This document shows, piece by piece, positions 2,665-36,106 of a stretch of 64,000 nt of DNA; the stretch's first letter is position 1, and the number at the start of each line of letters is the position of its first letter. The translations under genes were made by a program, and so were the position numbers. The DNA is taken from NCBI GenBank assembly GCA_963724765.1, contig CAVRVY010000003.1:736001-800000 (forward strand), read 5' to 3'. The notes under the pieces are model-generated. The model saw only the letters and a list, made by a program, of their open reading frames with translations. It did no database searches and was not told the DNA's origin. This DNA comes from an uncultured delta proteobacterium (GTDB lineage: Bacteria; Desulfobacterota; Binatia; Binatales; Binataceae).

Positions 2665-3006
2665 TCAGGCCGAGGCGACGCGGGCGGCCTTGCCGGAAAG
2701 GTCGCGCAGGTAGTACAGCCGCGCGCGGCGCACGCGGCCATGGCTCAGCACTTGGATCTTTTCGAGCCGCGGCGAATGCAGCGGAAAGATGCGCTCGACG
2801 CCGATTCCGTAGGAGACCTTGCGCACAGTGAAGGTCGCGCGATTGCCCCCGCGGTTCATCTTGATGACGATACCCTCGAAGGACTGGATGCGCTCTTTTT
2901 CGCCCTCGACCACTTTGACCTGCAGGCGCAGCGTGTCGCCGACGCGGAAGACGGGAAGGTCCTTGCGCAGTTCGCGATCTTCGAGTTTCTGGATGGTTGA
3001 ATTCAT
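2665..3006 (-). CDS. rplS: 50S ribosomal protein L19
   Basis: [47 protein letters not shown]; ATG at 3006. Confidence 0.97.
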
Positions 3007-3038
3007 GGGAGATCGGTTTCCTTGAAGTTGAGCAGCCA

Positions 3039-3067
3039 AGCTTACCGTAACGGCCGCCGTGACTCAA
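3039..3067 (-). promoter_or_regulatory. Putative sigma70 promoter for rplS
   Basis: Minus strand TTGAGT-17 nt-TAAGCT, about 33 nt upstream of the ATG. Confidence 0.5.
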
Positions 3068-3367
3068 TGTCAGGGACAGCGCCGCTTTTGCATCGCGGCG
3101 CATATGGGAACCCGAGCCAAGAACGCTACAATTAGCCTCCGGTCGAATCTTTGGAGTTCGTTTTGACCTGATATTTGACTGGCCGTCCCCGATTACGCTC
3201 CGCCTGGTAACCGCTCCTGATTAGTATGGTCGCTGACGTCTCGGCGATGGCCGCCTTCACCTCCGTGCAGTTACCAGGGCGGAACCCGACACGTTTTTGC
3301 CGAAGGCAGGACATTGCTGGGATACGCAAAGTCACATCGCTCACCCTCCGCTGGATTTTCCGGCGCG

Positions 3368-4393
3368 ATGCCGCGGTCGCCGCGCCAGCGTATTCCGGTT
3401 CTGTTGGCCTCGATCGTCTCGATCGCGATTACCGCACCGGGACAGGCGCGCGCGATGAACGCCTGCGCCAATCCGATCACCGCCTGTCCGTGTGCGATCC
3501 GGTCGGCGGGAGACTACACCATCTCCGGCCCCGGCCTGGTCGCGGATCCCCCCGGTGATTGCATCCACGTCAACGTGCCCGGCGTTACGCTTGACCTGGC
3601 GAACACGATCATCTCTTCGTCCCCATCCAGCGCTTCCGACGTCGGTGTACACGTGCTGGCGAATGCGGTAGGCGCGGTCGTGACAGGAACGTTGAATGCG
3701 CCGGCGACGGTTACGGGGTTTACCACCGGAATCGAAATCGACGCGCCGAGCGTGACGCTGGAGAACCTGGTCGCGCAAAGCAACGCCGTCGGGATCCAGA
3801 TTAACGGCGGATCGGCCTACGGCAGCGCGCTCGCCGTGCATGACAGTTCGCGCACCGGCATCCTGGTAAACGGTCCTGCCCCGGGCCCTTACCTCAACGG
3901 CGTCAGCGTGGATAGCACGCTGGGCTTTGCGGGTATCGAACTCAATGGTGTACGCGGGGCGTTTCTCACTAATCTGACGGTTACCGGCAGCGCGACCTAC
4001 GGTGTGTGGCTGCTGGCATCATCGCGCAACGTGATCGCCAATTTCAGTGTCTCGCGCAACACCGAGGCCGGAATATACCTTGGATGTTTTCGCAGCAGCG
4101 GACTGTTGGGCAAGCTCTGCACGACGGTACCGCCGACGCCGCCGAGCAACGGCAATATTCTGGCTTCGGTGGGCGATCCCAGCAGCGCCAACGGGCCGAG
4201 CCAGCCCGAGCAGGCTTATGGAGTGGCGATCGCGGACGGCAACGTGGGCAACCGCATCGTCGGCATCGCAGGCTCGGGTAATGGCAACGGCAGCTTTGGG
4301 GCCGACGCGATCGACGGCAACCCCGGTTGCGGGACCAATCTATGGACCGGAAACGAGTTCACGATTTCAAACCCGTCCACCTGCATCCATTAG
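3368..4393 (+). CDS. Secreted right-handed parallel beta-helix (pectin-lyase-like fold) protein
   Basis: Signal peptide ending ARA, ITACPCAI..GDY start, repeated N..GI motifs, paired Cys; start could be 3314 or 3368. Confidence 0.7.
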   Translation: MPRSPRQRIPVLLASIVSIAITAPGQARAMNACANPITACPCAIRSAGDYTISGPGLVADPPGDCIHVNVPGVTLDLANTIISSSPSSASDVGVHVLANAVGAVVTGTLNAPATVTGFTTGIEIDAPSVTLENLVAQSNAVGIQINGGSAYGSALAVHDSSRTGILVNGPAPGPYLNGVSVDSTLGFAGIELNGVRGAFLTNLTVTGSATYGVWLLASSRNVIANFSVSRNTEAGIYLGCFRSSGLLGKLCTTVPPTPPSNGNILASVGDPSSANGPSQPEQAYGVAIADGNVGNRIVGIAGSGNGNGSFGADAIDGNPGCGTNLWTGNEFTISNPSTCIH

Positions 4394-4508
4394 AACCGAC
4401 AACCGCCCTCAGACACCGTCGGCTTCTATGCCGCTACATCGTCCAGCGCGCACCTGAGGATTTAAGACAGGAGGCTGCGCTGCCGAGCCGTGTTTGATTC
4501 GCGCGCGA

Positions 4509-4796
4509 CTAGTTGGCGGACTTGGTCGACGACTTCTCGGTGGTCGTGCTGCTGCCTGTTCCAGGCACGTCGTTCGCGGTGGTCGTGGTCGTGGACTTCT
4601 CGGATTTTTCAGACATCGCCGGGTTGGCGGGTGCGGTCTCACCTTGAGCTCCGGTGGCCCCGGTCGCTCCGCTGGCTCCTGTAGCACCAGTCGGCCCCTG
4701 GACGGTTTCCTTGCATCCGATAGCGGCGGTGCCCATCAGCAGTGCAAGAGCCCCGATAGCGGCGTAGCTGGCGACAGTTGTTAGAATATTTTTCAT
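4509..4796 (-). CDS. Small lipoprotein with a collagen-like (G-X-Y)7 tract and Ser/Thr-rich tail
   Basis: Signal peptide with lipobox AIG-C, then GPT GAT GAS GAT GAT GAQ GET. Confidence 0.7.
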   Translation of the reverse strand: MKNILTTVASYAAIGALALLMGTAAIGCKETVQGPTGATGASGATGATGAQGETAPANPAMSEKSEKSTTTTTANDVPGTGSSTTTEKSSTKSAN

Positions 4797-4917
4797 AGCT
4801 ATACGGTATCAGGATTGGTCAGCCACAATGCCTTGCGGATCGGCCGTTCTTGGTTATTCAGATAACCAAATGGCCGCGCAGCATTTGCAACGCTGCGCTT
4901 ATTTTCGAGACCTGACG

Positions 4918-5139
4918 CTAGCCGGGATTCGAGGTTGACAGCCGGGCCGTCTCGCGGATCCGGCGGCGGCGGTTTAGCAGCAGCCCGCTTACCAGCACCG
5001 TCGTTCCGATCATCGAGACCAGCACGCCGAGCGGCGCGCCCACCGTAGCCGGCGCGCTGGCCGAGCTTATCACCAGGTCGGTCCCGAACGTCAGCAGGAT
5101 CGCGCCAATCACTATCATCAGGTCGGCTGCCAGGCTCAT
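4918..5139 (-). CDS. Small two-TM membrane protein
   Basis: Two hydrophobic helices then RRRRR; ATGA overlap with the upstream methyltransferase. Confidence 0.6.
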   Translation of the reverse strand: MSLAADLMIVIGAILLTFGTDLVISSASAPATVGAPLGVLVSMIGTTVLVSGLLLNRRRRIRETARLSTSNPG

Positions 5140-5732
5140 CGTTCGTTTCGCTCCCGCGATTTCTTCCGCGCTTTACTCACGCCGCGCAGGCGGTCGAGAA
5201 TGATGCTCGCGGCCGCGCGCACCGAAAGATGATTGTAATCTCCCGCGCCGCGAATCGCCTCCAGCGCGAGGTCGGCGCGCGCGCGCGCTGCCGGCGCGAG
5301 CCCGAAGCCGGTGCCGAGCAGGATCAGGACCGGCGCGGCATCTTCAGCCGCCATCCGCTCGCGCATCGCGGCGAAGCTTACGCCCTTCGCTTCGCGGGCC
5401 GAGGTGTGAACGATCGCTGGCCGCCGGCCCGCAGCACGTTCGGCCGCGGCCATCGCCGCGTCAAGGTCGGTCACGACTTCGATCAGATCGAGTGCTTCGA
5501 CCCGGCGCGAGTCGAAGCTGCGGCCGTGGCCGATATGCCAGTGGTCGATCACGCTGCGCGCGAACTCGCGCTGCTCGGGAACCGGATGAACCACGTAGAG
5601 CGCGCGCACCCCGTAGGTGCGCGAGGAGCGGGCGATATCGTGGAGGTCGAGCGAGGTGATGGCCGAGGTGATGATGCGGCCGTTGCGGTCGAGCACGGGA
5701 TGATGGAGAAGAGCGAGAAAAATTTCAGCCAA
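5136..5732 (-). CDS. SPOUT-class RNA methyltransferase of the family found next to or fused with TrmD
   Basis: LALLHHPV..G..ITSAITSLDLHDIARSSRTYG, LLGTGFGL, YNHLSVRAAASIILDRL; TTG at 5732. Confidence 0.85.
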   Translation of the reverse strand: MAEIFLALLHHPVLDRNGRIITSAITSLDLHDIARSSRTYGVRALYVVHPVPEQREFARSVIDHWHIGHGRSFDSRRVEALDLIEVVTDLDAAMAAAERAAGRRPAIVHTSAREAKGVSFAAMRERMAAEDAAPVLILLGTGFGLAPAARARADLALEAIRGAGDYNHLSVRAAASIILDRLRGVSKARKKSRERNER

Positions 5733-5749
5733 GGTGTGCGCCAGATGAG

Positions 5750-6436
5750 TCAGGGACGGCGCCGCTTGAGCAGGTCGGGGCGCCGGCGCGCGGTGCGCTT
5801 GAGCGCTTCGGCCTTGCGCCACTCGTGGATTTTCTTATGGTCGCCGCTCAGCAGCACCTCGGGCACGCGTATCCCGCGAAACTCCTCGGGGCGCGTATAG
5901 TGCGGATACTCGAGCAGGCCGTCGGCAAACGATTCCTCATTGAGCGATTCGGGATTGCCGAGCACGCCCGGCACCAGCCGCGCGACCGCCTCGATCAGCA
6001 CCATCGCGGGCAACTCGCCGCCACTGAGGACGAAATCGCCGATCGAGATCTCCTGATCGACCGCGCTGCGCACGCGCTCGTCGATGCCCTCGTAGCGGCC
6101 CGTGACCAGCAGCAGCCCCGGCCGCCGCCCGCTTAGTTCGCGTACCATCGACTGGTCGAGCGGTTCGCCCTGCGGCGTCAGCAGCACGCGCCACAATCCC
6201 GGATGCGAAGTAATGGCGCTTTCGATCGCGGCGAACAGCGGCTCCGGCCGCAGCACCATCCCGCTGCCGCCGCCGTACGGCGTGTCGTCGACCTGGCGGT
6301 AATTGCCGAGCCCATGCTCGCGCAGTGCGTGCGCCTCGATCCTGACCAAGCCCGCCTTGAGCGCGCGCCCGACCATCCCCGGCCAGTTGGCGGGGACGAA
6401 CAGTTCGGGGAAAAGCGTGATTACGTGAAATTCCAT
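5750..6436 (-). CDS. trmD: tRNA (guanine-37-N1)-methyltransferase
   Basis: ITLFPE, DDTPYGGGSGM, GRYEGIDER, SIGDFVLSGGE, LLEYPHYTRP. Confidence 0.97.
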   Translation of the reverse strand: MEFHVITLFPELFVPANWPGMVGRALKAGLVRIEAHALREHGLGNYRQVDDTPYGGGSGMVLRPEPLFAAIESAITSHPGLWRVLLTPQGEPLDQSMVRELSGRRPGLLLVTGRYEGIDERVRSAVDQEISIGDFVLSGGELPAMVLIEAVARLVPGVLGNPESLNEESFADGLLEYPHYTRPEEFRGIRVPEVLLSGDHKKIHEWRKAEALKRTARRRPDLLKRRRP

Positions 6437-6459
6437 CGTTGGCGAATCCGGCGACGAGC

Positions 6460-7059
6460 CTAGTCCAGCAGGCCCGGCACCGCTTCGATCGTAACCCGCC
6501 GCGCCCCGAGGTCCATCGTCTTGACCACGTCGCTGATGACCGGCACCAGCACCTCGCGCTCGCCGTCGCGCACCACCCATACGTCGTGCGCGCCGGTGGA
6601 CATGATGTCCTCGATAATGCCAAGACGCCGCCCGTCAGTCAGCATCACTTCCGCGCCGGCGAGTTGGAAGTAATAAAATTCGCCTTCCCCAAGTGGGGGC
6701 AGGTCGGCCGCTGCGACCATCACGGCGCCTCCGCGGAGCGCCTCGGCCGCGTCGGCGTCGCCGATACCCTCTAGCATGACCCTCTGATTGCCGGCGCTGA
6801 CCGCGCTCGCGCCCAGGACTTTGAATTCGCGTCGGCCGGCTGCGGTCTCGACGAACAGACGCTGTAGCGCGGAAAGCGTGGTCGAGCCGGGGTCGTCGGT
6901 GCGCACGCGGAGCGCGCCATGGAGCCCATGGCTGCCGGCGACGTAGCCGATACGCAAGAGGCCGTCGGCAGTTTGCCCGATGAGCGAACGCCGCGCCGCA
7001 CCCGCCACCGCCGTCGTCGGACGCCTGTCGTTCAGCGGGCGCGCGCGGCGATTGGCCAT
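6460..7059 (-). CDS. rimM: 16S rRNA processing protein RimM
   Basis: IGYVAGSHGLHG, LPPLGEGEFY, TGAHDVWV; operon position. Confidence 0.92.
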   Translation of the reverse strand: MANRRARPLNDRRPTTAVAGAARRSLIGQTADGLLRIGYVAGSHGLHGALRVRTDDPGSTTLSALQRLFVETAAGRREFKVLGASAVSAGNQRVMLEGIGDADAAEALRGGAVMVAAADLPPLGEGEFYYFQLAGAEVMLTDGRRLGIIEDIMSTGAHDVWVVRDGEREVLVPVISDVVKTMDLGARRVTIEAVPGLLD

Positions 7060-29310: not shown

Positions 29311-31701
29311 TTACAATGACGGTAACGGTACGGTCAGCGCGTCATATACCGTGATTCTCGGCCCATAGGCGGCCTGAAATACGCCGATGCCATTGGCGGG
29401 CCGGATCAGGTTGGTCCGGTCGAAAATGTTGATCAGCACGATGCGGTTCGTGAACGTGCCGAGTCCCGGTATCACGAAATTCCGGGCGGCGCTCAGGTTG
29501 AACTGCCATACCTTCGGAAGCTGGTTCTCGTTTGCGAAGCCTCCACGCAGTCCGCTGCTGAACAGGCCGTCGATGGTGAACTGGTAGCTCTTCCATCTAT
29601 ATGCGGCGCCGCCCGACGCGCCGACCAGCGGCGTGTGATCGAGCACTATGAAATGACGGTCGATCTGCGCGACCTCATCAGCAGGGAAGTTGTACTGTCC
29701 GCTGGCAACGCCGATGTCCTCTTCGCGGGCCACGAAGACGTTCGCGCGCACGGCCAGGTTCTCGAGGTTGTAGGTCAGCGAGTTCTCCGTGCCGCCGCCG
29801 TAACCTCGAACGTAATTGAAGGGCGCGTCGATCGGCACGAAACCGAACTGTCCCTCGTCAAGATAGTGCCGATCGATGCGGAAGTAATTGTCCTGGGCGA
29901 AGGCCAGACGCGGTGTGAACTGATGCGTGAATCCGGCGTCCCAGGTGTAGTCGGTTTCGGTATCCGGTGAAGTGTTGCCGCTCGGGCTGGTACCATCGGC
30001 GCCCGTCGTGCCGGCGAACAGTTTGAAGATGCCCGATGAAACGTTCTGAAAGTTGGGTATCTGGAAATTTCTCGCGAAGCCGGCGTGTACGGTGGTATTT
30101 TTCTGCGCCTTGTATATGAAATTGAGCGCGGGGCTGAACTGACTATTGATGGTGAATCCGGTTACGCGGTCCCAGCGCGATCCGATATTCAAGCTCAGCC
30201 TGTCGGTGATTTGCCAGGTATCCTGAAGATATACGCCATAGACCAGGTTGATCCTGTTCATGTTCGCGGATACGGATATCGGAGTAGTCTCCGGCTGTCC
30301 CATCAAGATCGGAAAGACCTGCGAGCGCTGATCCGATTCGACGCCGTACTCGCCGAAATAAAATCCGCCGCGCAGCGCATGCTGAGCGCCCAGCCGATAA
30401 GTCAGGTCGCCCGCAAACGTGTTGGAGAAGTCGCTGGTGAACACGTTTGACGCGATTCCCTGGTAAATGAGGTCGCTAATCGGATCGGGATTAAACGTCT
30501 GCCTGTTGTAGTGCGCGGTATACGCGACCTGGTAGTCGGCGTTAGATCCGATGATGCCGTTAAGCGCGAACACTCCATAGTAGTCCTGCTGGTCGAGGCC
30601 CGAATCGATCGCGCTTGACGGATGGAGGGCCGGATTGACGTGGTCGAGCTGAAACTCAGGCGTTTGATTGGGCTGGTTTGGAAATTGATTGCTCGCCACC
30701 GTCATACCCGAGATCAGGCTCAATTTGGTGGCCGGATTCAACTCGTACGTCAGATAGGCGAATCCCTGTCCCTGCTGTGCCGCATCGTGAAGCGGATCGG
30801 GCGCCGCCACCGCGGAACTGAATCCCAGATTGGATTGAAAATAAAGACCGGTAAGGTAATAATTGAAATTGCCGTCGCATCCGCCAAGCTCGAAACTAGG
30901 CTGCACGGTGTCGCGCTGCCCGCCGGAGATTGTGAACTCGTTGTGCCCGCCGTCGCATCCGTTCTTGGTGTGAATGTCGATCACGCCGGAGGTCCGGTAG
31001 CCATACTGCGCGGGCAGGACCCCATCCATCAGGCTCACGCTTTTGACGAAGTATGAGTTGAGCAATTGCGTGAAGGTCGGATCGCTATTGATGTCGAGCG
31101 GCAGCAGAATCCCGTTCATCTGGTATTGGATGCCCATGTGCTCGCCGCGGATGTGAATCTCCTGGTTCTGATCCAGCGCCACGCCGGGCATTTGGAGCAT
31201 CACCTGGTTAAGCGGCGTCGCCTCGCCTTCGGGGAGATTCGCGATATCGCGCGCGCTCAGCGTGTACTTGTTGGTTCCGCTCGCGGACAGCCCGTTCTGC
31301 GCGCTGATCCTGGTGGCGCTTACGGGAACGGTCAGCGCCTCTTGCGCTTCCAGTACCAGGTCCAGATGCTTACCGGAGATCTTGGGCAGGATGATGATCA
31401 TCGTTCCCGGTTTGAAGCCTTTCTTCCGACTCACGAGCGCATAAGTTCCGGCTTTGCCCTGGGGTAGCCGAAACAGACCTCGATCGTCAGTGATTGCCTG
31501 CGCGATCGTGTGTCCGCCGACGGATTGCAGCGTCACAGTGGCATGCGCTATCGGCCGGCCAAGCGCGTCCTTAACCGTGCCCGCGATATATCGTGCGACG
31601 GACTGCTTTTGACTGGCCCGGGCCGCGCCGCCAAGTATCATCAGAGAAAGTATCAGTCTCAGCGCTGGGAGAAGCAGTGCGCAGGTCTTTGCGCGCGCCA
31701 T
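29311..31701 (-). CDS. TonB-dependent receptor with an N-terminal carboxypeptidase-regulatory-like domain
   Basis: Signal peptide, IAGTVKDALGRPI..ATVTL, plug MPGV..IHIRGEH..QYQMNG, PAQYG.RTSGVIDI, aromatic-rich barrel strands; start uncertain. Confidence 0.88.
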   Translation of the reverse strand: MARAKTCALLLPALRLILSLMILGGAARASQKQSVARYIAGTVKDALGRPIAHATVTLQSVGGHTIAQAITDDRGLFRLPQGKAGTYALVSRKKGFKPGTMIIILPKISGKHLDLVLEAQEALTVPVSATRISAQNGLSASGTNKYTLSARDIANLPEGEATPLNQVMLQMPGVALDQNQEIHIRGEHMGIQYQMNGILLPLDINSDPTFTQLLNSYFVKSVSLMDGVLPAQYGYRTSGVIDIHTKNGCDGGHNEFTISGGQRDTVQPSFELGGCDGNFNYYLTGLYFQSNLGFSSAVAAPDPLHDAAQQGQGFAYLTYELNPATKLSLISGMTVASNQFPNQPNQTPEFQLDHVNPALHPSSAIDSGLDQQDYYGVFALNGIIGSNADYQVAYTAHYNRQTFNPDPISDLIYQGIASNVFTSDFSNTFAGDLTYRLGAQHALRGGFYFGEYGVESDQRSQVFPILMGQPETTPISVSANMNRINLVYGVYLQDTWQITDRLSLNIGSRWDRVTGFTINSQFSPALNFIYKAQKNTTVHAGFARNFQIPNFQNVSSGIFKLFAGTTGADGTSPSGNTSPDTETDYTWDAGFTHQFTPRLAFAQDNYFRIDRHYLDEGQFGFVPIDAPFNYVRGYGGGTENSLTYNLENLAVRANVFVAREEDIGVASGQYNFPADEVAQIDRHFIVLDHTPLVGASGGAAYRWKSYQFTIDGLFSSGLRGGFANENQLPKVWQFNLSAARNFVIPGLGTFTNRIVLINIFDRTNLIRPANGIGVFQAAYGPRITVYDALTVPLPSL

Positions 31702-31824
31702 TTCATAATGATTTCGCAAGTGCCCGGCGGTTGAGACAACTGTGGGTCGCGAAAAGGTGTTTCTCAAGGTAAAGCCTCTCCGAGCCCGCCGTTTGGCGAG
31801 CGAGTGCCGCACCAATCCGCCAGG

Positions 31825-31889
31825 AGGGCAAACCTTACCCTTCTGCAAGAGGGCGTTACTTACCCTCTGTACAGGGCCTCATTTGCCCC
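31825..31889 (-). promoter_or_regulatory. Candidate structured RNA (three-way junction) in the receptor leader
   Basis: mRNA GGGGCAAA/UUUGCCCU stem encloses two similar CCCU..AGGG hairpins. Confidence 0.45.
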
Positions 31890-31933
31890 GAGCGCGAATC
31901 GGTGAAACTTCGAACGAGCGATTTTTACAGGCG

Positions 31934-32299
31934 CTATACGAGAGCGGGGGGAGGCCGCGCGGCTTGCGGCAAATCTTTCAAGCCGCAATTGATGAACGGA
32001 GTGACCGTGAAGGCTGATTTTTCGGGAAAATCACAAATTGCCGCAAGCGCGACGTGTTCGAATGGGCTGTCGAAGTGCCAGTGACCTAATCGGTTCGGAT
32101 CCCCGTTGACGGCCGCTGGCTGATGCCCATGTACGTCGTAAGCGTGGGCCCCGTGCTCATGATAGGAATCGAGGGGCTCTTTGCGATGATGGTGGTGATG
32201 GTTGTCGCCGTGATCATGCTCCGGCGCGATGCGTCCATCGTGATGGTGATGGACGTGCGGGTGATTTCCTCCACGGTGGCGATGGTAAATCGCGCTCAT
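31934..32299 (-). CDS. His-rich protein with C-terminal ARPPP (RAPP-like) motif; putative leader/arrest peptide
   Basis: HPHVHHHH, HDHGDNHHHHH, GHWH, ends QAARPPPALV*; co-oriented upstream of the TonB-dependent receptor. Confidence 0.7.
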   Translation of the reverse strand: MSAIYHRHRGGNHPHVHHHHDGRIAPEHDHGDNHHHHHRKEPLDSYHEHGAHAYDVHGHQPAAVNGDPNRLGHWHFDSPFEHVALAAICDFPEKSAFTVTPFINCGLKDLPQAARPPPALV

Positions 32300-32514
32300 G
32301 ATCGCAAACGCAAATTACTCCTCCGAGCGGCAACCACAAAACGCGACCGCTCGGTTCGGTGGCAGCGCTTACAGGCACTGGCTGCGCTGGTTGAAGATAC
32401 GTAGCCCGCGCACATCGCCGATTTACCTGATTGCTGCACGGCAGTGGTGCGCGCCGCCGCGCGAGAGCGGTTGCCGGCGCCCCTGCGCCATGTAAATTGC
32501 CAGTGGCAATCGCG

Positions 32515-35082
32515 ATGCAGGCGAAGGTGATCCTTATCGGCGCGGCGCGGGGCGTGGGTCAACTGATCTACGCCATTCCGCAGGCGCTCGAGGGCCGCGT
32601 CGAGCGCGGCCATCGGGTGATCGTGCCGCTGCGTTCGCGCCGCCTGACCGGCATCGTAATCGAAGTCGGAGAGCGGCTGGAGGCCGGCGCTGGCGCGCTC
32701 AAGCCGATCCTCGAGCTTCCCGAGTCGCGCCCACTCTACGACCGCGCCCATCTCGGGCTCATCGAGTTCATGGCGTCGTACTATATGGCGCCGCTGGGCG
32801 ACGCGATGCAGAGCGTGGTTCCGGCTGCCGCGCGGATCGAGTCGCGCAAGGTCCTTCGGCTCGCCGCATCTCCCGACCCCTTGCGCGAGGCGGCGCTGAC
32901 GCCGATGGAGCGCGCGATTATCGAAGCGCTCGGCCGCCGCGCGATGACGGCGCGCGAACTCGCCCGGCTGGGCGAGCGGCGCGAAGTCACCTCCGCACTC
33001 GCCCTTCTCGCCGCCGAACGAATCGTGGAGACGGGAGAAGCCACCCGCGGCCGCCATCGAAGCGCGAGCGCCGTGCGCCTTGCACCCGGGGCTCGCGCGG
33101 CCACGAAACTTCGCGGCGCCCGGCAGCGTGAGATCATGCGCCTGCTCGGTGAGGCCGCGCCCGAAGCGCTCGCGCTCGAAGAATTGGAAGAACAGATTCC
33201 CGGCGCGCGAGTCGCGGTGCGCGCCCTCGCGGAGCGCGGAATCGTGGAGGTCGAGTCAGCGCCGCGGACCGGTGCGATGCGGTATCCGGGCAGCGCGGAC
33301 TTATCCGCTACAGAAGTGTCCGCTACAGAAGTGTCCGGTTGCGAAGTGTCCGGCAGCGCGCAAGCGTCCGCTGCGTCCGGCGTCGGCGATTTCGATTTGA
33401 TGCCCGAGCAGGCGGCCGCAATCGAGACCGTCATGCCTGCCGTCATCGATGCGCGCGAGGGCACCTTTCTCTTGTGGGGCGTCACCGCCAGCGGCAAGAC
33501 CGAGGTCTATCTGAAGCTCGCGGCGGCGGCTCTGGAAGCCGGCCGGCAGGTGCTGTTGCTGGTGCCCGAGATAGCGCTCGCGGATCAGATCGTCAGATCG
33601 TTTCGCGCCCGCTTCGGCCCGCTGGTGGCCGTGGCGCACAGCGCGCAGAACGTGGCCGAGCGATGGGCGAGCTGGATGGCCGCTCTGGGGGGGCAGGCGC
33701 GAATCATGATCGGTCCGCGCTCGGCGATCTTCGCTCCGCTAAGCGGCCTGGGACTGATCGTAGTCGACGAGGAGCACGACCCCGCCTACAAACAGGAAGA
33801 AGGAATTCGCTACAACGCGCGCGACCTCGCCGTGGTGCTGGGGCGACTCGCGCAATGCCCGGTGGTGCTGGGCTCGGCGACGCCGTCGTCCGAGTCGTTC
33901 TACAACACAAGGCGCGGGCGCTACCGGCTGCTGCGGATGGCGCGGCGGGTGATGGAGCGGCCGATGGCGGCGGTCGAGATAGTCGACCTGCGCGCGGAAT
34001 TCAAAAAAGATCCGGCGCGTGAAAAGAACGGCGCGGCAGCCGGCGCCGCGAAAAAGCTCGACCAGCCGCGTGCGGTGCCGCTCTCGGCGCCGCTGCTCGA
34101 TGCGCTGCGCGCCAATCTCGCCGCGGGTGGGCAAAGCGTGGTGTTTCTCAACCGCCGGGGCTTCCATAACTTTCTGCAATGCCATCTCTGCGGCATCGTG
34201 ATCTCCTGTGCTAATTGCAGCGTCAGCATGACGTTCCACATGCGTGACCGTTCGCTGCGATGCCATTGGTGTGGCGCGCATGCGCCGGCGCCCGAAGCGT
34301 GTCCCGAGTGCAACGGCTTCGGCCTGGTGGGCCAGGGCTTTGGCACCGAGCGGCTAACGGAGGCGCTGGCCGCGATGCTGCCGCAGGCGCGGATCGAGCG
34401 GATGGACAGCGACACCAGCGGGCGGCGCGGGATGCGCCTGGAGCTGGTCGAGCGCCTGCGCCGCGGCGAGATCGACGTGATGGTCGGCACGCAGATGATC
34501 ACCAAGGGGTTTGACTTGCCGGGCGTGACGCTGGTCGGCGTGGTGCTGGCCGACCTCGGGCTCAACCTGCCCGACTTCCGCGCCGCGGAACGAACCTTTC
34601 AACTGCTGACTCAAGTTGCGGGGCGCGCGGGCCGCGGCGAGCGGATGGGGCGCGTGCTGATCCAGACCTACGCGCCGCATCACTACAGTATTCGTGCCGC
34701 GCGCGACCAGGACTACGACCGCTTCATCCGGCGCGAGCTGCGATTGCGCCAGGAACTGGGATGGCCGCCGTACTCGCGGATGGCGCTGGTGCGAATCGAG
34801 GGGGCCGACGCCGCCGCGGTGGCCGCGATGGCGGAGCGGGCGGCCAAGGCGCTTCGGGGCCAGGTCGGGGCCGCAAAGGTTGACGCGATGCGCGTGCTCG
34901 GGCCTGCACCGGCGCCGATCGAGCGGCTGCGCGGGCGCTATCGATGGCAGGTCGTAGTGAGATCGACCGAGGCGGCGGCGATGCGCGCGGCGCTCGCGTC
35001 GATGCAGGCGCAGCTTGGCGGGCGCGACGCGCGCGGCGGGGTCTTCGTCGGTATCGACCTTGACCCGGTCAACATGCTGTGA
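32515..35082 (+). CDS. priA: Primosomal protein N'
   Basis: GVTASGKTEVY, VPEIAL, DEEHD, SATPS, four CxxC pairs, GTQMITKG, QVAGRAGR. Confidence 0.96.
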   Translation: MQAKVILIGAARGVGQLIYAIPQALEGRVERGHRVIVPLRSRRLTGIVIEVGERLEAGAGALKPILELPESRPLYDRAHLGLIEFMASYYMAPLGDAMQSVVPAAARIESRKVLRLAASPDPLREAALTPMERAIIEALGRRAMTARELARLGERREVTSALALLAAERIVETGEATRGRHRSASAVRLAPGARAATKLRGARQREIMRLLGEAAPEALALEELEEQIPGARVAVRALAERGIVEVESAPRTGAMRYPGSADLSATEVSATEVSGCEVSGSAQASAASGVGDFDLMPEQAAAIETVMPAVIDAREGTFLLWGVTASGKTEVYLKLAAAALEAGRQVLLLVPEIALADQIVRSFRARFGPLVAVAHSAQNVAERWASWMAALGGQARIMIGPRSAIFAPLSGLGLIVVDEEHDPAYKQEEGIRYNARDLAVVLGRLAQCPVVLGSATPSSESFYNTRRGRYRLLRMARRVMERPMAAVEIVDLRAEFKKDPAREKNGAAAGAAKKLDQPRAVPLSAPLLDALRANLAAGGQSVVFLNRRGFHNFLQCHLCGIVISCANCSVSMTFHMRDRSLRCHWCGAHAPAPEACPECNGFGLVGQGFGTERLTEALAAMLPQARIERMDSDTSGRRGMRLELVERLRRGEIDVMVGTQMITKGFDLPGVTLVGVVLADLGLNLPDFRAAERTFQLLTQVAGRAGRGERMGRVLIQTYAPHHYSIRAARDQDYDRFIRRELRLRQELGWPPYSRMALVRIEGADAAAVAAMAERAAKALRGQVGAAKVDAMRVLGPAPAPIERLRGRYRWQVVVRSTEAAAMRAALASMQAQLGGRDARGGVFVGIDLDPVNML
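33304..33358 (+). repeat. In-frame 15-bp tandem repeat in the priA linker (SATEV-SATEV-SGCEV-SGS)
   Basis: tccgctacagaagtg x2, tccggttgcgaagtg, tccggcagcg. Confidence 0.85.
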
Positions 35083-35694: not shown

Positions 35695-36030
35695 TTAGAG
35701 CTTCTCGATCCGCACCGCCGTGCCGTAGGCTGCGATCTCGCTCATGATGTTGCCGATCTCGTTGCAATCAAAGCGCATCGCGACCACGGCGTTGCCGCCC
35801 TTCTCCATCGCGGCCAGGCGCAGCCGGCCGATCGCCTGTTCGCGGCTGTCGGAGAGCAATTGCGTATAGCCGGCGACCTCGCCGCCAAAAATCGTGCGCA
35901 GTCCTGCGCCCATGTTGGAGAAAGCGTTGCGCGCCCGGCAGATCAGGCCGAAAACTTCGCCATATACGGCCACGATCTTGTAGCCTGGGACGTCGTTCAT
36001 GGTAGAGACTAAAACAGTGTCGTTGTCCAT
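35695..36030 (-). CDS. YbjQ/UPF0145 family protein
   Basis: GEVFG..RARN, GGEV.GYTQLL.DSREQA, GGNAVVAMRFD, AYGTAV. Confidence 0.9.
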   Translation of the reverse strand: MDNDTVLVSTMNDVPGYKIVAVYGEVFGLICRARNAFSNMGAGLRTIFGGEVAGYTQLLSDSREQAIGRLRLAAMEKGGNAVVAMRFDCNEIGNIMSEIAAYGTAVRIEKL

Positions 36031-36106
36031 AAACAGACCATAACCATGGTAAGCGCGGCTGACAACGTCAAAACGCAAATCTAATTCAACTCAAAGGCCG
36101 CGGCGA

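Follow-up and report, generated by a model that had tools for sequence, protein, structure and literature searches.

A histidine-rich leader open reading frame ending in RPPP as a probable cis-acting, arrest-type regulator of a TonB-dependent receptor gene in an uncultured member of the Binataceae

Here, we mainly focus on a small histidine-rich open reading frame (ORF) and the TonB-dependent receptor gene that follows it in a stretch of 64,000 nucleotides (nt) from an uncultured delta proteobacterium of the Binataceae (contig CAVRVY010000003.1, positions 736,001 to 800,000 of the forward strand, assembly GCA_963724765.1); this whole stretch is referred to below as the window. The ORF, hereafter the leader, lies on the minus strand at 31934..32299 and comprises 121 codons from an ATG start to a TAG stop, ending in RPPPALV* and lacking a signal peptide. 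Judging from sequence comparisons, it is probably a cis-acting, arrest-type regulatory upstream ORF of the receptor gene, which resembles the CruR leader of Bordetella pertussis, has a sensor built of His, and is unrelated to the DUF2946 family. By analogy with CruR, the leader is most likely a metal-sensing switch. Such an element had been proposed in a sequence-only reading of the window, and all of its computationally testable predictions were borne out, above all the conserved linkage between leader and receptor.

The leader product carries 23 His, 2 Cys, and 1 Met among its 121 residues, which confirms the earlier description of a 121-amino acid (aa) product with more than 20 His and an ARPPPALV* ending. 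The motifs HPHVHHHH, HDHGDNHHHHH, GHWH, and ARPPPALV* begin at residues 13, 28, 72, and 114, respectively. Pairwise ratios of nonsynonymous to synonymous substitution rates (dN/dS) among eight genomic copies range from 0.17 to 0.47 (21 of the 28 pairs have unsaturated dS), and because both the frame and the start position are conserved as well, the leader appears to be a translated gene under purifying selection; the same dN/dS values and conserved frame rule out a spurious ORF. The start codon (ATG or GTG) occupies the same position in the relatives, five codons past an in-frame TAA, and an upstream extension of the leader protein is therefore precluded. AlphaFold2 returned a mean pLDDT of 49 and no secondary structure for the leader, the N-terminal part of which is predicted to be intrinsically disordered in the apo form. 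A lone RxPP ending is within chance expectation, given that R[AGSP]PP falls within the last 12 residues of 174 of the 48,556 stop-to-stop ORFs of at least 60 aa in the window genome (62% G+C), whereas its conservation is beyond chance; in the same scan, the leader was the only ORF that was both His-rich and RxPP-ending. A precursor of a ribosomally synthesized and post-translationally modified peptide or of a metallophore was also considered and is unlikely, as the operon contains no modification or export genes.

Conservation was assessed in two alignments, one of 10 full-length close relatives and the other of 26 sequences that includes distant members and has a mean column identity of 34%. 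In the 10 close relatives, the invariant residues are H6, R7, H8, G10, G11, N12, H15, H17, H30, H52, Y54, D55, G58, P61, A62, G72, H73, W74, H75, F76, F80, R115, P117, and P118. Across the 26 members, H6, H8, G11, H17, H73, W74, R115, P117, and P118 remain invariant, and G10, H15, G72, and H75 are nearly so. The N-terminal His motif HRHRGGNHPHVHHHH (residues 6-20; 32240..32284, minus strand) follows the family consensus HxHxGGxHxHVH, and the GHWHF motif (residues 72-76; 32072..32086, minus strand) is the conserved putative sensor element nearest to the C-terminus. No Cys column is found among the invariant or near-invariant columns of the 26 sequences, the conserved ligands being His, in keeping with the earlier suggestion that His takes the place of Cys as the sensor residue.

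The proposed arrest site consists of the RPPP codons CGG CCT CCC CCC (residues 115-118; 31946..31957, minus strand). Conservation of this ending, as anticipated, extends to the whole family: the Arg and the last two Pro are invariant in 26/26 sequences, and by hand count only P (13), A (6), G (5), or S (2) occurs at the x position. A metagenome scan with the 10-sequence alignment yielded 56 loci, of which 52 have the motif (x being P in 49 and S in 3), two are cut at the 3′ end, one is cut before HWHF, and one (L053) lacks RxPP, its sequence reading ...LAARQAARPRPN... and continuing. The restriction of x to P, S, A, or G matches the residue set reported to permit arrest (PMC12992588). Beyond RxPP, the tail has three residues in 42 of the 52 metagenome loci and five to seven in the remaining 10. 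The linker between HWH and the Arg is exactly 39 residues long in all 52 of these loci and in all 14 proteins of the branch to which the window leader belongs, and its sequence is among the least conserved parts of the leader in the 10-sequence alignment.

The co-oriented gene downstream has its longest ORF at 29311..31848 and appears from its domains to encode a TonB-dependent receptor, as had been read from the sequence: TonB_dep_Rec_b-barrel of Pfam matches with 59 bits (cut-off 27), the N-terminal CarboxypepD_reg-like domain with 50.1 bits (cut-off 32.3), and the Plug domain weakly, with 17.3 bits, under its cut-off of 23.9. The start of the gene (29311..31767, minus strand) is probably a TTG at 31767..31765, which gives 818 aa, and not the first ATG at 31701..31699, which gives 796 aa. 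A Shine-Dalgarno (SD)-like GGAGAGG (31775..31781) and the likely TTG (31765..31767), together spanning 31765..31781 on the minus strand, are conserved in the relatives, the purine-rich box lying 6-8 nt ahead of the conserved start, which is TTG in 7/8 loci and ATG in one. The TTG start adds a conserved extension of 22 residues (MRNTFSRPTVVSTAG...) before the signal-peptide-like segment of the receptor. Owing to the conserved box and TTG, the spacer is taken as 166 nt (31768..31933, minus strand) instead of the 232 nt to the first ATG; the earlier figure of about 230 nt thus holds for the first ATG and not for the probable start.

The association of leader and receptor was expected to be conserved, and it is. 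A receptor homologue follows on the same strand in all 40 metagenome loci that extend at least 386 nt past the leader stop; the 13 loci without a receptor match each have at most 347 nt downstream, and three more are cut. In related genomes of the close branch, a full-length receptor with 62-88% identity is present in 5/6 fetched relatives and in 4/4 further loci (L019-L022), or 9/10 altogether. In the one exception, genome G005 (locus L013; G005:C18 ~3000-4200), the receptor is gone, with none within 5 kb downstream and an integrase/transposase-like ORF in its place, and the leader has decayed through a frameshift, a change of W74 to a stop codon, and an RPSP ending, so that leader and receptor seem to have been lost together. 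Frameshifts also occur in the leader (3486-3906) and receptor (4163-6474) of L021, and one lies in the leader of L022 (3405-3723); the frames past them still read RPPPVLA* (L021) and RSPPCLT* (L022), and these frameshifts may be assembly errors or recent decay. From these comparisons, the cis-linkage of leader and receptor appears to be obligatory. Only two further Plug-domain genes were found in the window genome, one of them a paralogue of the window receptor (G000:C4:1105094-1105399), and no RxPP-ending ORF was seen within 1.5 kb upstream of either of these two Plug matches.

The family is small and confined largely to one lineage. A word-indexed search recovered eight relatives of the leader, a leader match was obtained in 7/41 related genomes (the window genome included), and a profile search of 1.84 billion cluster representatives returned 25 proteins at E ≤0.001, 12 of them at ≤1e-10; the database records of family members are Candidatus Binataceae/Binatia metagenome-assembled genomes and a few others. 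No Pfam or NCBIfam model matches the window leader or its relatives, consistent with the earlier remark that this His-rich class was not recognizable as a characterized one. A published description of a His-rich RxPP family before TonB receptors was not found, and the supplementary lists of PMC9973294 and PMC12992588 may hold members. As a separate observation, the 727-aa protein P0016 contains approximately 13 tandem units of about 52 residues with CHWLLDRPF, of which 12 stretches matched the leader profile via an HWHFDxPF-like motif; it is probably unrelated.

A sister branch of 10 proteins (P0018, P0020, P0022-P0028, and P0030; 130-155 aa) shares HxHxGGxHxHVH, the His-rich stretch, GHWH, and RxPP with the window branch, and profile-profile comparison of the two branches with hhalign gave a probability of 98.7% (E 2.4e-16) over 112 columns that include the C-terminal motif. 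Its members begin with a basic and hydrophobic segment, by eye a signal peptide or anchor, and end in RAPP, RGPP, or RSPP; the spacing from HW[H/P] to the Arg is 43 residues in 10/10 proteins. A Plug-domain ORF lies 61-96 nt after the leader in 6/6 evaluable loci of this branch, the other two reaching contig ends. This receptor lacks CarboxypepD_reg and has no BLASTP similarity to the window receptor (E 0.46), and therefore one leader family appears to head two receptor lineages.

The closest functional parallel is CruR (Bp2923), a DUF2946 protein of B. pertussis that heads cruR-bfrG(crtA)-bp2921, which includes a TonB-dependent transporter gene (PMC9426467, PMC12914433). In CruR, RAPP lies three residues from the C-terminus and CXXC 45 residues upstream, with a spacing that is kept to within 1-2 residues and whose alteration affects regulation; CruR has little structure and regulates without need of its signal peptide, and a bubble of C over G marks a Rho-utilisation site in a locus with a spacer of 162 bp (PMC9426467). 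The window locus resembles this arrangement in having a small first ORF before a TonB-dependent transporter with no regulator gene nearby, a fixed distance from ligand to motif (45 residues in CruR versus 39 or 43 in the His-rich family), a long G+C-rich spacer (162 versus 166 nt), an excess of C over G at the leader 3′ end, and a protein of little structure whose C-terminal residues are nonpolar and whose motif lies three residues before the stop. Unlike CruR, which has CXXC, RAPP, and a signal peptide, the window leader has His ligands, RPPP, and no such peptide, and the PepSY_TM gene found downstream of CruR is absent from the window locus. No DUF2946 (PF11162) match was obtained for the window leader at E ≤0.1, for 14 relatives at E ≤1, or in the window genome, and in a comparison with a single DUF2946-like protein from that phylum the alignment is limited to the final 18 residues, with a probability of 1%; a DUF2946-like query recovered only two homologues, and no profile-profile comparison with a DUF2946 alignment was made. 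Similarity of the His-rich family to CruR and CutF was thus not detectable beyond these last residues.

A second parallel is CutF of Rhodobacter capsulatus, in which a stem-loop shields the SD of the next gene and a Sec signal is required; CutF-like clusters whose motifs are exclusively His-rich, with HupE/UreJ genes as neighbours, have also been described, and Ni/Co was suggested for them (PMC9973294). The likeness lies in a metal-ligand motif combined with a C-terminal Pro-rich, stalling-like motif that acts in cis on the next gene, with SD shielding predicted for several relatives of the window leader. As far as the available text of that report describes them, the His-only clusters are of DUF2946 type beside HupE/UreJ, not TonB receptors, and CutF needs a Sec signal, whereas the window leader has none. 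The arrest motif itself is familiar from ApdA, ApdP, ApcA, and SecM, which likewise carry R-x-P-P near the end of a small ORF that precedes the gene under control but, in the published accounts available, monitor secretion and bear signal or transmembrane (TM) segments. In RAPP peptides, the Arg is irreplaceable, Ala can be replaced fully by Gly and partially by Ser, Asp, or Pro, and ApdP A132P is near wild type in Bacillus subtilis and intermediate in Escherichia coli; the RxPP sequences that emerged from earlier random screens, as cited there, had G, A, S, or P at x (Fujiwara et al. 2025, PMC12992588). The downstream genes for which the same 2025 survey found enrichment after RAPP/RGPP ORFs include those for TonB-dependent receptors, and since the search described there was for RAPP/RGPP, members with RPPP or RSPP such as the window leader would not have been collected (PMC12992588).

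Taken together with these precedents, the following sequence of events can be envisaged for the window locus. A promoter abutting the leader start codon would drive transcription, and the leader would be translated. Three codons short of the stop, with Pro118-tRNA occupying the A site, the ribosome would then pause or arrest at R115-P116-P117. This step is proposed because RxPP is invariant and because of the published mutagenesis of RAPP peptides, from which the placement of P117 and P118 in the P and A sites, respectively, is likewise taken (PMC12992588). The strictly fixed length of the linker suggests that its 39 residues fill the exit tunnel, so that the disordered, His-rich residues 1-80, ending in GHWHF, would sit just outside; this would place H75 at a distance of 42 residues from the peptidyl-transferase centre, approximately at the tunnel exit. 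Binding of a divalent metal to the His ligands would compact the nascent chain and relieve or alter the stall, by analogy with CruR. Metal-dependent folding of a small domain can reportedly release arrest in a manner that depends on linker length. A ligand set of His alone, with neither Cys nor Met, points to Ni, Co, Zn, or Cu(II) and speaks against a Cu(I)/Cys mechanism, and as the window leader has no N-terminal hydrophobic segment, sensing would be cytoplasmic. Finally, ribosome occupancy of the leader 3′ end would set receptor expression by blocking Rho at a C-rich stretch, in which case metal sufficiency would presumably switch the importer off; for relatives whose spacers are short, a better fit would be unmasking of the receptor ribosome-binding site. 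The complete scheme, in which a signal-less, disordered poly-His chain senses a cytoplasmic metal other than Cu(I) (Zn, Ni, or Co) and compaction, the 39-residue ruler, and release at RPPP gate importer transcription, is put forward tentatively, with somewhat less confidence than the regulatory role itself. In TnaC and MgtL, a ligand-dependent stall at the end of the leader likewise controls Rho-dependent termination before the downstream genes. Both of those leaders are very short and sense in the tunnel (TnaC) or via Pro codon decoding and RNA structure (MgtL), and only the His-rich leader would have an external metal-binding part.

Several features of the flanking DNA and RNA bear on this scheme. 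A promoter-like element, TTGTGG-16 nt-TAATTT (32312..32339, minus strand), was recognized by hand and ends 12 nt before the leader ATG; the corresponding pattern (TTGCGx-like, 16-18 nt, TA(A/G)(T/G)TT, and 11-12 nt to the start codon) is present in 7/8 aligned loci, and the second hexamer includes an in-frame TAA, at which the upstream ORF terminates. A consensus promoter scan found 0 promoter-like sites and did not call the 32312..32339 element. No SD box of the leader is present at normal spacing, and the leader messenger RNA may be nearly leaderless. The spacer contains a long hairpin at approximately 31810..31904, with an equivalent central hairpin in the minimum free energy (MFE) structures of the window, L008, L009, and L010, and a 271-nt stretch that includes the spacer (31690-31960) folds with -108.1 kcal/mol (z = -2.16; 4/200 shuffles fold as well). 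A terminator scan found none in the spacer and one weak site inside the leader ORF, where 1.0 was expected by chance. A riboswitch was rejected, as no Rfam family matches 31400-32700: the only hit at E ≤10 was isrG, with 9.6 bits (gathering score 100) and on the other strand. A C-rich, G-poor stretch (31910..32040, minus strand) takes in the leader 3′ end and reaches ~25 nt into the spacer, with C over G by 5-17 points on the coding strand in 78-nt windows from ~32040 to 31910; C exceeds G between 120 nt before and 30 nt after the leader stop in 13/13 loci, with the opposite bias over the remainder of the spacer in 11/13. By analogy with CruR (PMC9426467), this stretch is a candidate Rho-utilisation region, and the window genome encodes rho (696.6 bits, above cut-off). 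The receptor SD was further examined in 13 loci with a stall-site occlusion model, in which a 28-nt footprint is masked and SD accessibility is compared with that under control windows.

A number of observations weigh against the arrest-leader interpretation or parts of it. Peptides of the RAPP class typically bear a signal or TM segment, and the window leader, which begins MSAIYHRH, seems to have none (no hydrophobic N-terminal segment was seen by eye); almost all surveyed RAPP/RGPP ORFs before TonB receptors carry signal sequences (PMC12992588). A look-up of sequencing runs listed none recorded as RNA for this stretch. The receptor sequence points to no substrate: its NCBIfam matches are all far below the cut-offs and provide no substrate, its nearest solved chains are ferric enterobactin receptors, matched at E 3.9e-06 over residues 508-671 only and affording no substrate assignment, and the leader-receptor operon contains no metal-related gene. 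EF-P is encoded in the window genome (227.8 bits), and RPPP contains PPP, which may make it a weaker, EF-P-sensitive core compared with RAPP/RGPP. The C-richness of the leader 3′ end is partly a by-product of its Pro, Ala, and Leu codons, and the 52 motif loci represent 47 distinct sequences, many of them close kin, so that the counts overstate independence. At the RNA level, occlusion lowers the unpaired probability of the SD in the window from 0.29 to 0.19, leaves L008 unchanged (0.07 to 0.07), and lowers L010 from 0.15 to 0.11; given the fall in the window, the model in which the ribosome-binding site is unmasked fails there in silico. Folding seven aligned spacers together gives a weak structure (-5.7 kcal/mol, 17 pairs, covariation term 0.14), and the pairing between Pro codons and SD that it suggested shows no covariation and lacks thermodynamic support in the window.

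Three other explanations were weighed against sensing by arrest. The leader might be a free-standing His-rich metal-binding protein of the Hpn type, serving in storage, buffering, or as a chaperone and merely co-transcribed with the receptor, with RPPP as a structural or interaction motif; its 23 His in 121 residues, the purifying selection, and the conserved operon with an importer would suit this, and a language-model look-up gave weak CzcI-like leads (score 0.95, 124/256 shared features, recognition below the usual level). Such a protein would nevertheless leave unexplained why a linker of variable sequence is fixed at 39 or 43 residues, why x is limited to P/S/A/G, and why the motif stays 3-7 residues from the stop; it would be odd for a protein acting in a single compartment to come in forms with and without a hydrophobic N-terminus, no fold is predicted, and the leader decays upon receptor loss, all of which make this explanation improbable. 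Equally doubtful is a plain polyproline pause that tunes the receptor to EF-P activity or translation capacity and senses no ligand. PPP is a canonical pause relieved by EF-P, and EF-P is present. RAPP/RGPP, not RPPP, are the robust EF-P-refractory cores (PMC12992588), which again favours a simple pause; the Arg at -2 is invariant, though, and RAPP, RGPP, and RSPP members occur in the same family, which fits the RAPP class better than a bare PPP, and a mere pause accounts neither for the eight invariant His nor for the fixed spacing of the close branch. Finally, runs of four and five His codons recall a hisL-type attenuator that senses charged tRNA-His, an idea that deserves almost no credence: the runs lie at least ~230 nt upstream of the stop of a 121-aa ORF, and their length varies, while it is G10, G11, N12, Y54, D55, W74, F76, R115, P117, and P118 that are invariant in close relatives; moreover, the downstream gene encodes a receptor and not a biosynthetic enzyme, and no terminator-like hairpin follows.

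A more serious competitor keeps the arrest leader and changes its output, in that the stalled ribosome would free the receptor SD from pairing with the last codons of the leader, as in SecM, MifM, or CutF, instead of acting through Rho. In 7/13 loci, the occlusion model predicts an increase in SD accessibility that takes it past all control windows, namely L019 (0.11 to 0.28), L021 (0.19 to 0.29), L022 (0.02 to 0.35), L023 (0.06 to 0.45), L024 (0.00 to 0.29), L026 (0.19 to 0.35), and L027 (0.05 to 0.17), and in the MFE structures of L023, L024, L026, and L027 the SD is paired with the codons that follow RxPP. Such pairing is predicted in the sister branch and in a number of close relatives. 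The RxPP Pro codons also avoid CCG (5/29 in ten related loci, a hand count and not a test, versus 52% genome-wide), which counts in favour of this output but is compatible with a C-rich, G-poor Rho site as well as with an anti-SD role. On the other side, no rise is seen in the window, L008, L010, or L029, the values of L009 and L012 do not exceed the controls, and the SD of the window, mostly paired (unpaired probability 0.29), pairs locally with the receptor's own early codons, numbers 4-7; C-rich Pro codons and a G-rich SD are in any case complementary by default, and neither related loci nor codon counts are independent. Translational output is accordingly rated unlikely, though distinctly less so than the three explanations above. 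For the window locus, the Rho route is favoured because rho is present, the leader 3′ end is C-rich, and the spacer is long, structured, and free of a terminator, whereas SD unmasking fails there in silico; on present sequence evidence, the family may use both routes.

With regard to novelty, parts of this picture are already in print, namely His-only CutF-like proteins (PMC9973294) and, as a class, RAPP/RGPP ORFs before TonB receptors (PMC12992588). What appears to be new is the as yet unnamed, putatively His-based sensor, with a window branch that would be cytoplasmic and ends in RPPP; the module itself is as in CruR. If the interpretation is correct, this would be the first non-copper, non-Cys case of the arrest-leader principle. 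To our knowledge, metal-sensing arrest leaders have so far been established only for copper, in the Cys-based DUF2946 proteins CruR and CutF. Together with the putatively exported or membrane-bound sister branch, with its 43-residue ruler and RAPP/RGPP endings, the same sensor would then read either compartment. Confirmation would extend leader-peptide metal sensing to metals otherwise ascribed to riboswitches or regulators and would provide a compact, portable sensor module, and the invariant linker length makes the folding-force model directly testable. The leader would also offer the first regulatory handle on an uncharacterized receptor of an uncultured soil/peat lineage.

The neighbouring genes encode shikimate kinase, chorismate synthase, a DUF308 protein (convergent), PriA (divergent), a lumazine-binding-like protein, and a YbjQ_1 protein, and no transcription-factor gene is among the immediate neighbours within ~5 kb on either side, in line with what the sequence-only reading had stated for the vicinity. 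The YbjQ_1 gene ('putative heavy-metal-binding'; 35695-36078, minus strand), for which there is no evidence of a link, lies past priA at a distance of 3.4 kb from the leader. Antisense to priA, an Arg/Ala-rich ORF of 253 aa (32296-33057, minus strand) abuts the leader start and is most likely a spurious ORF of the kind that arises in high-G+C DNA.

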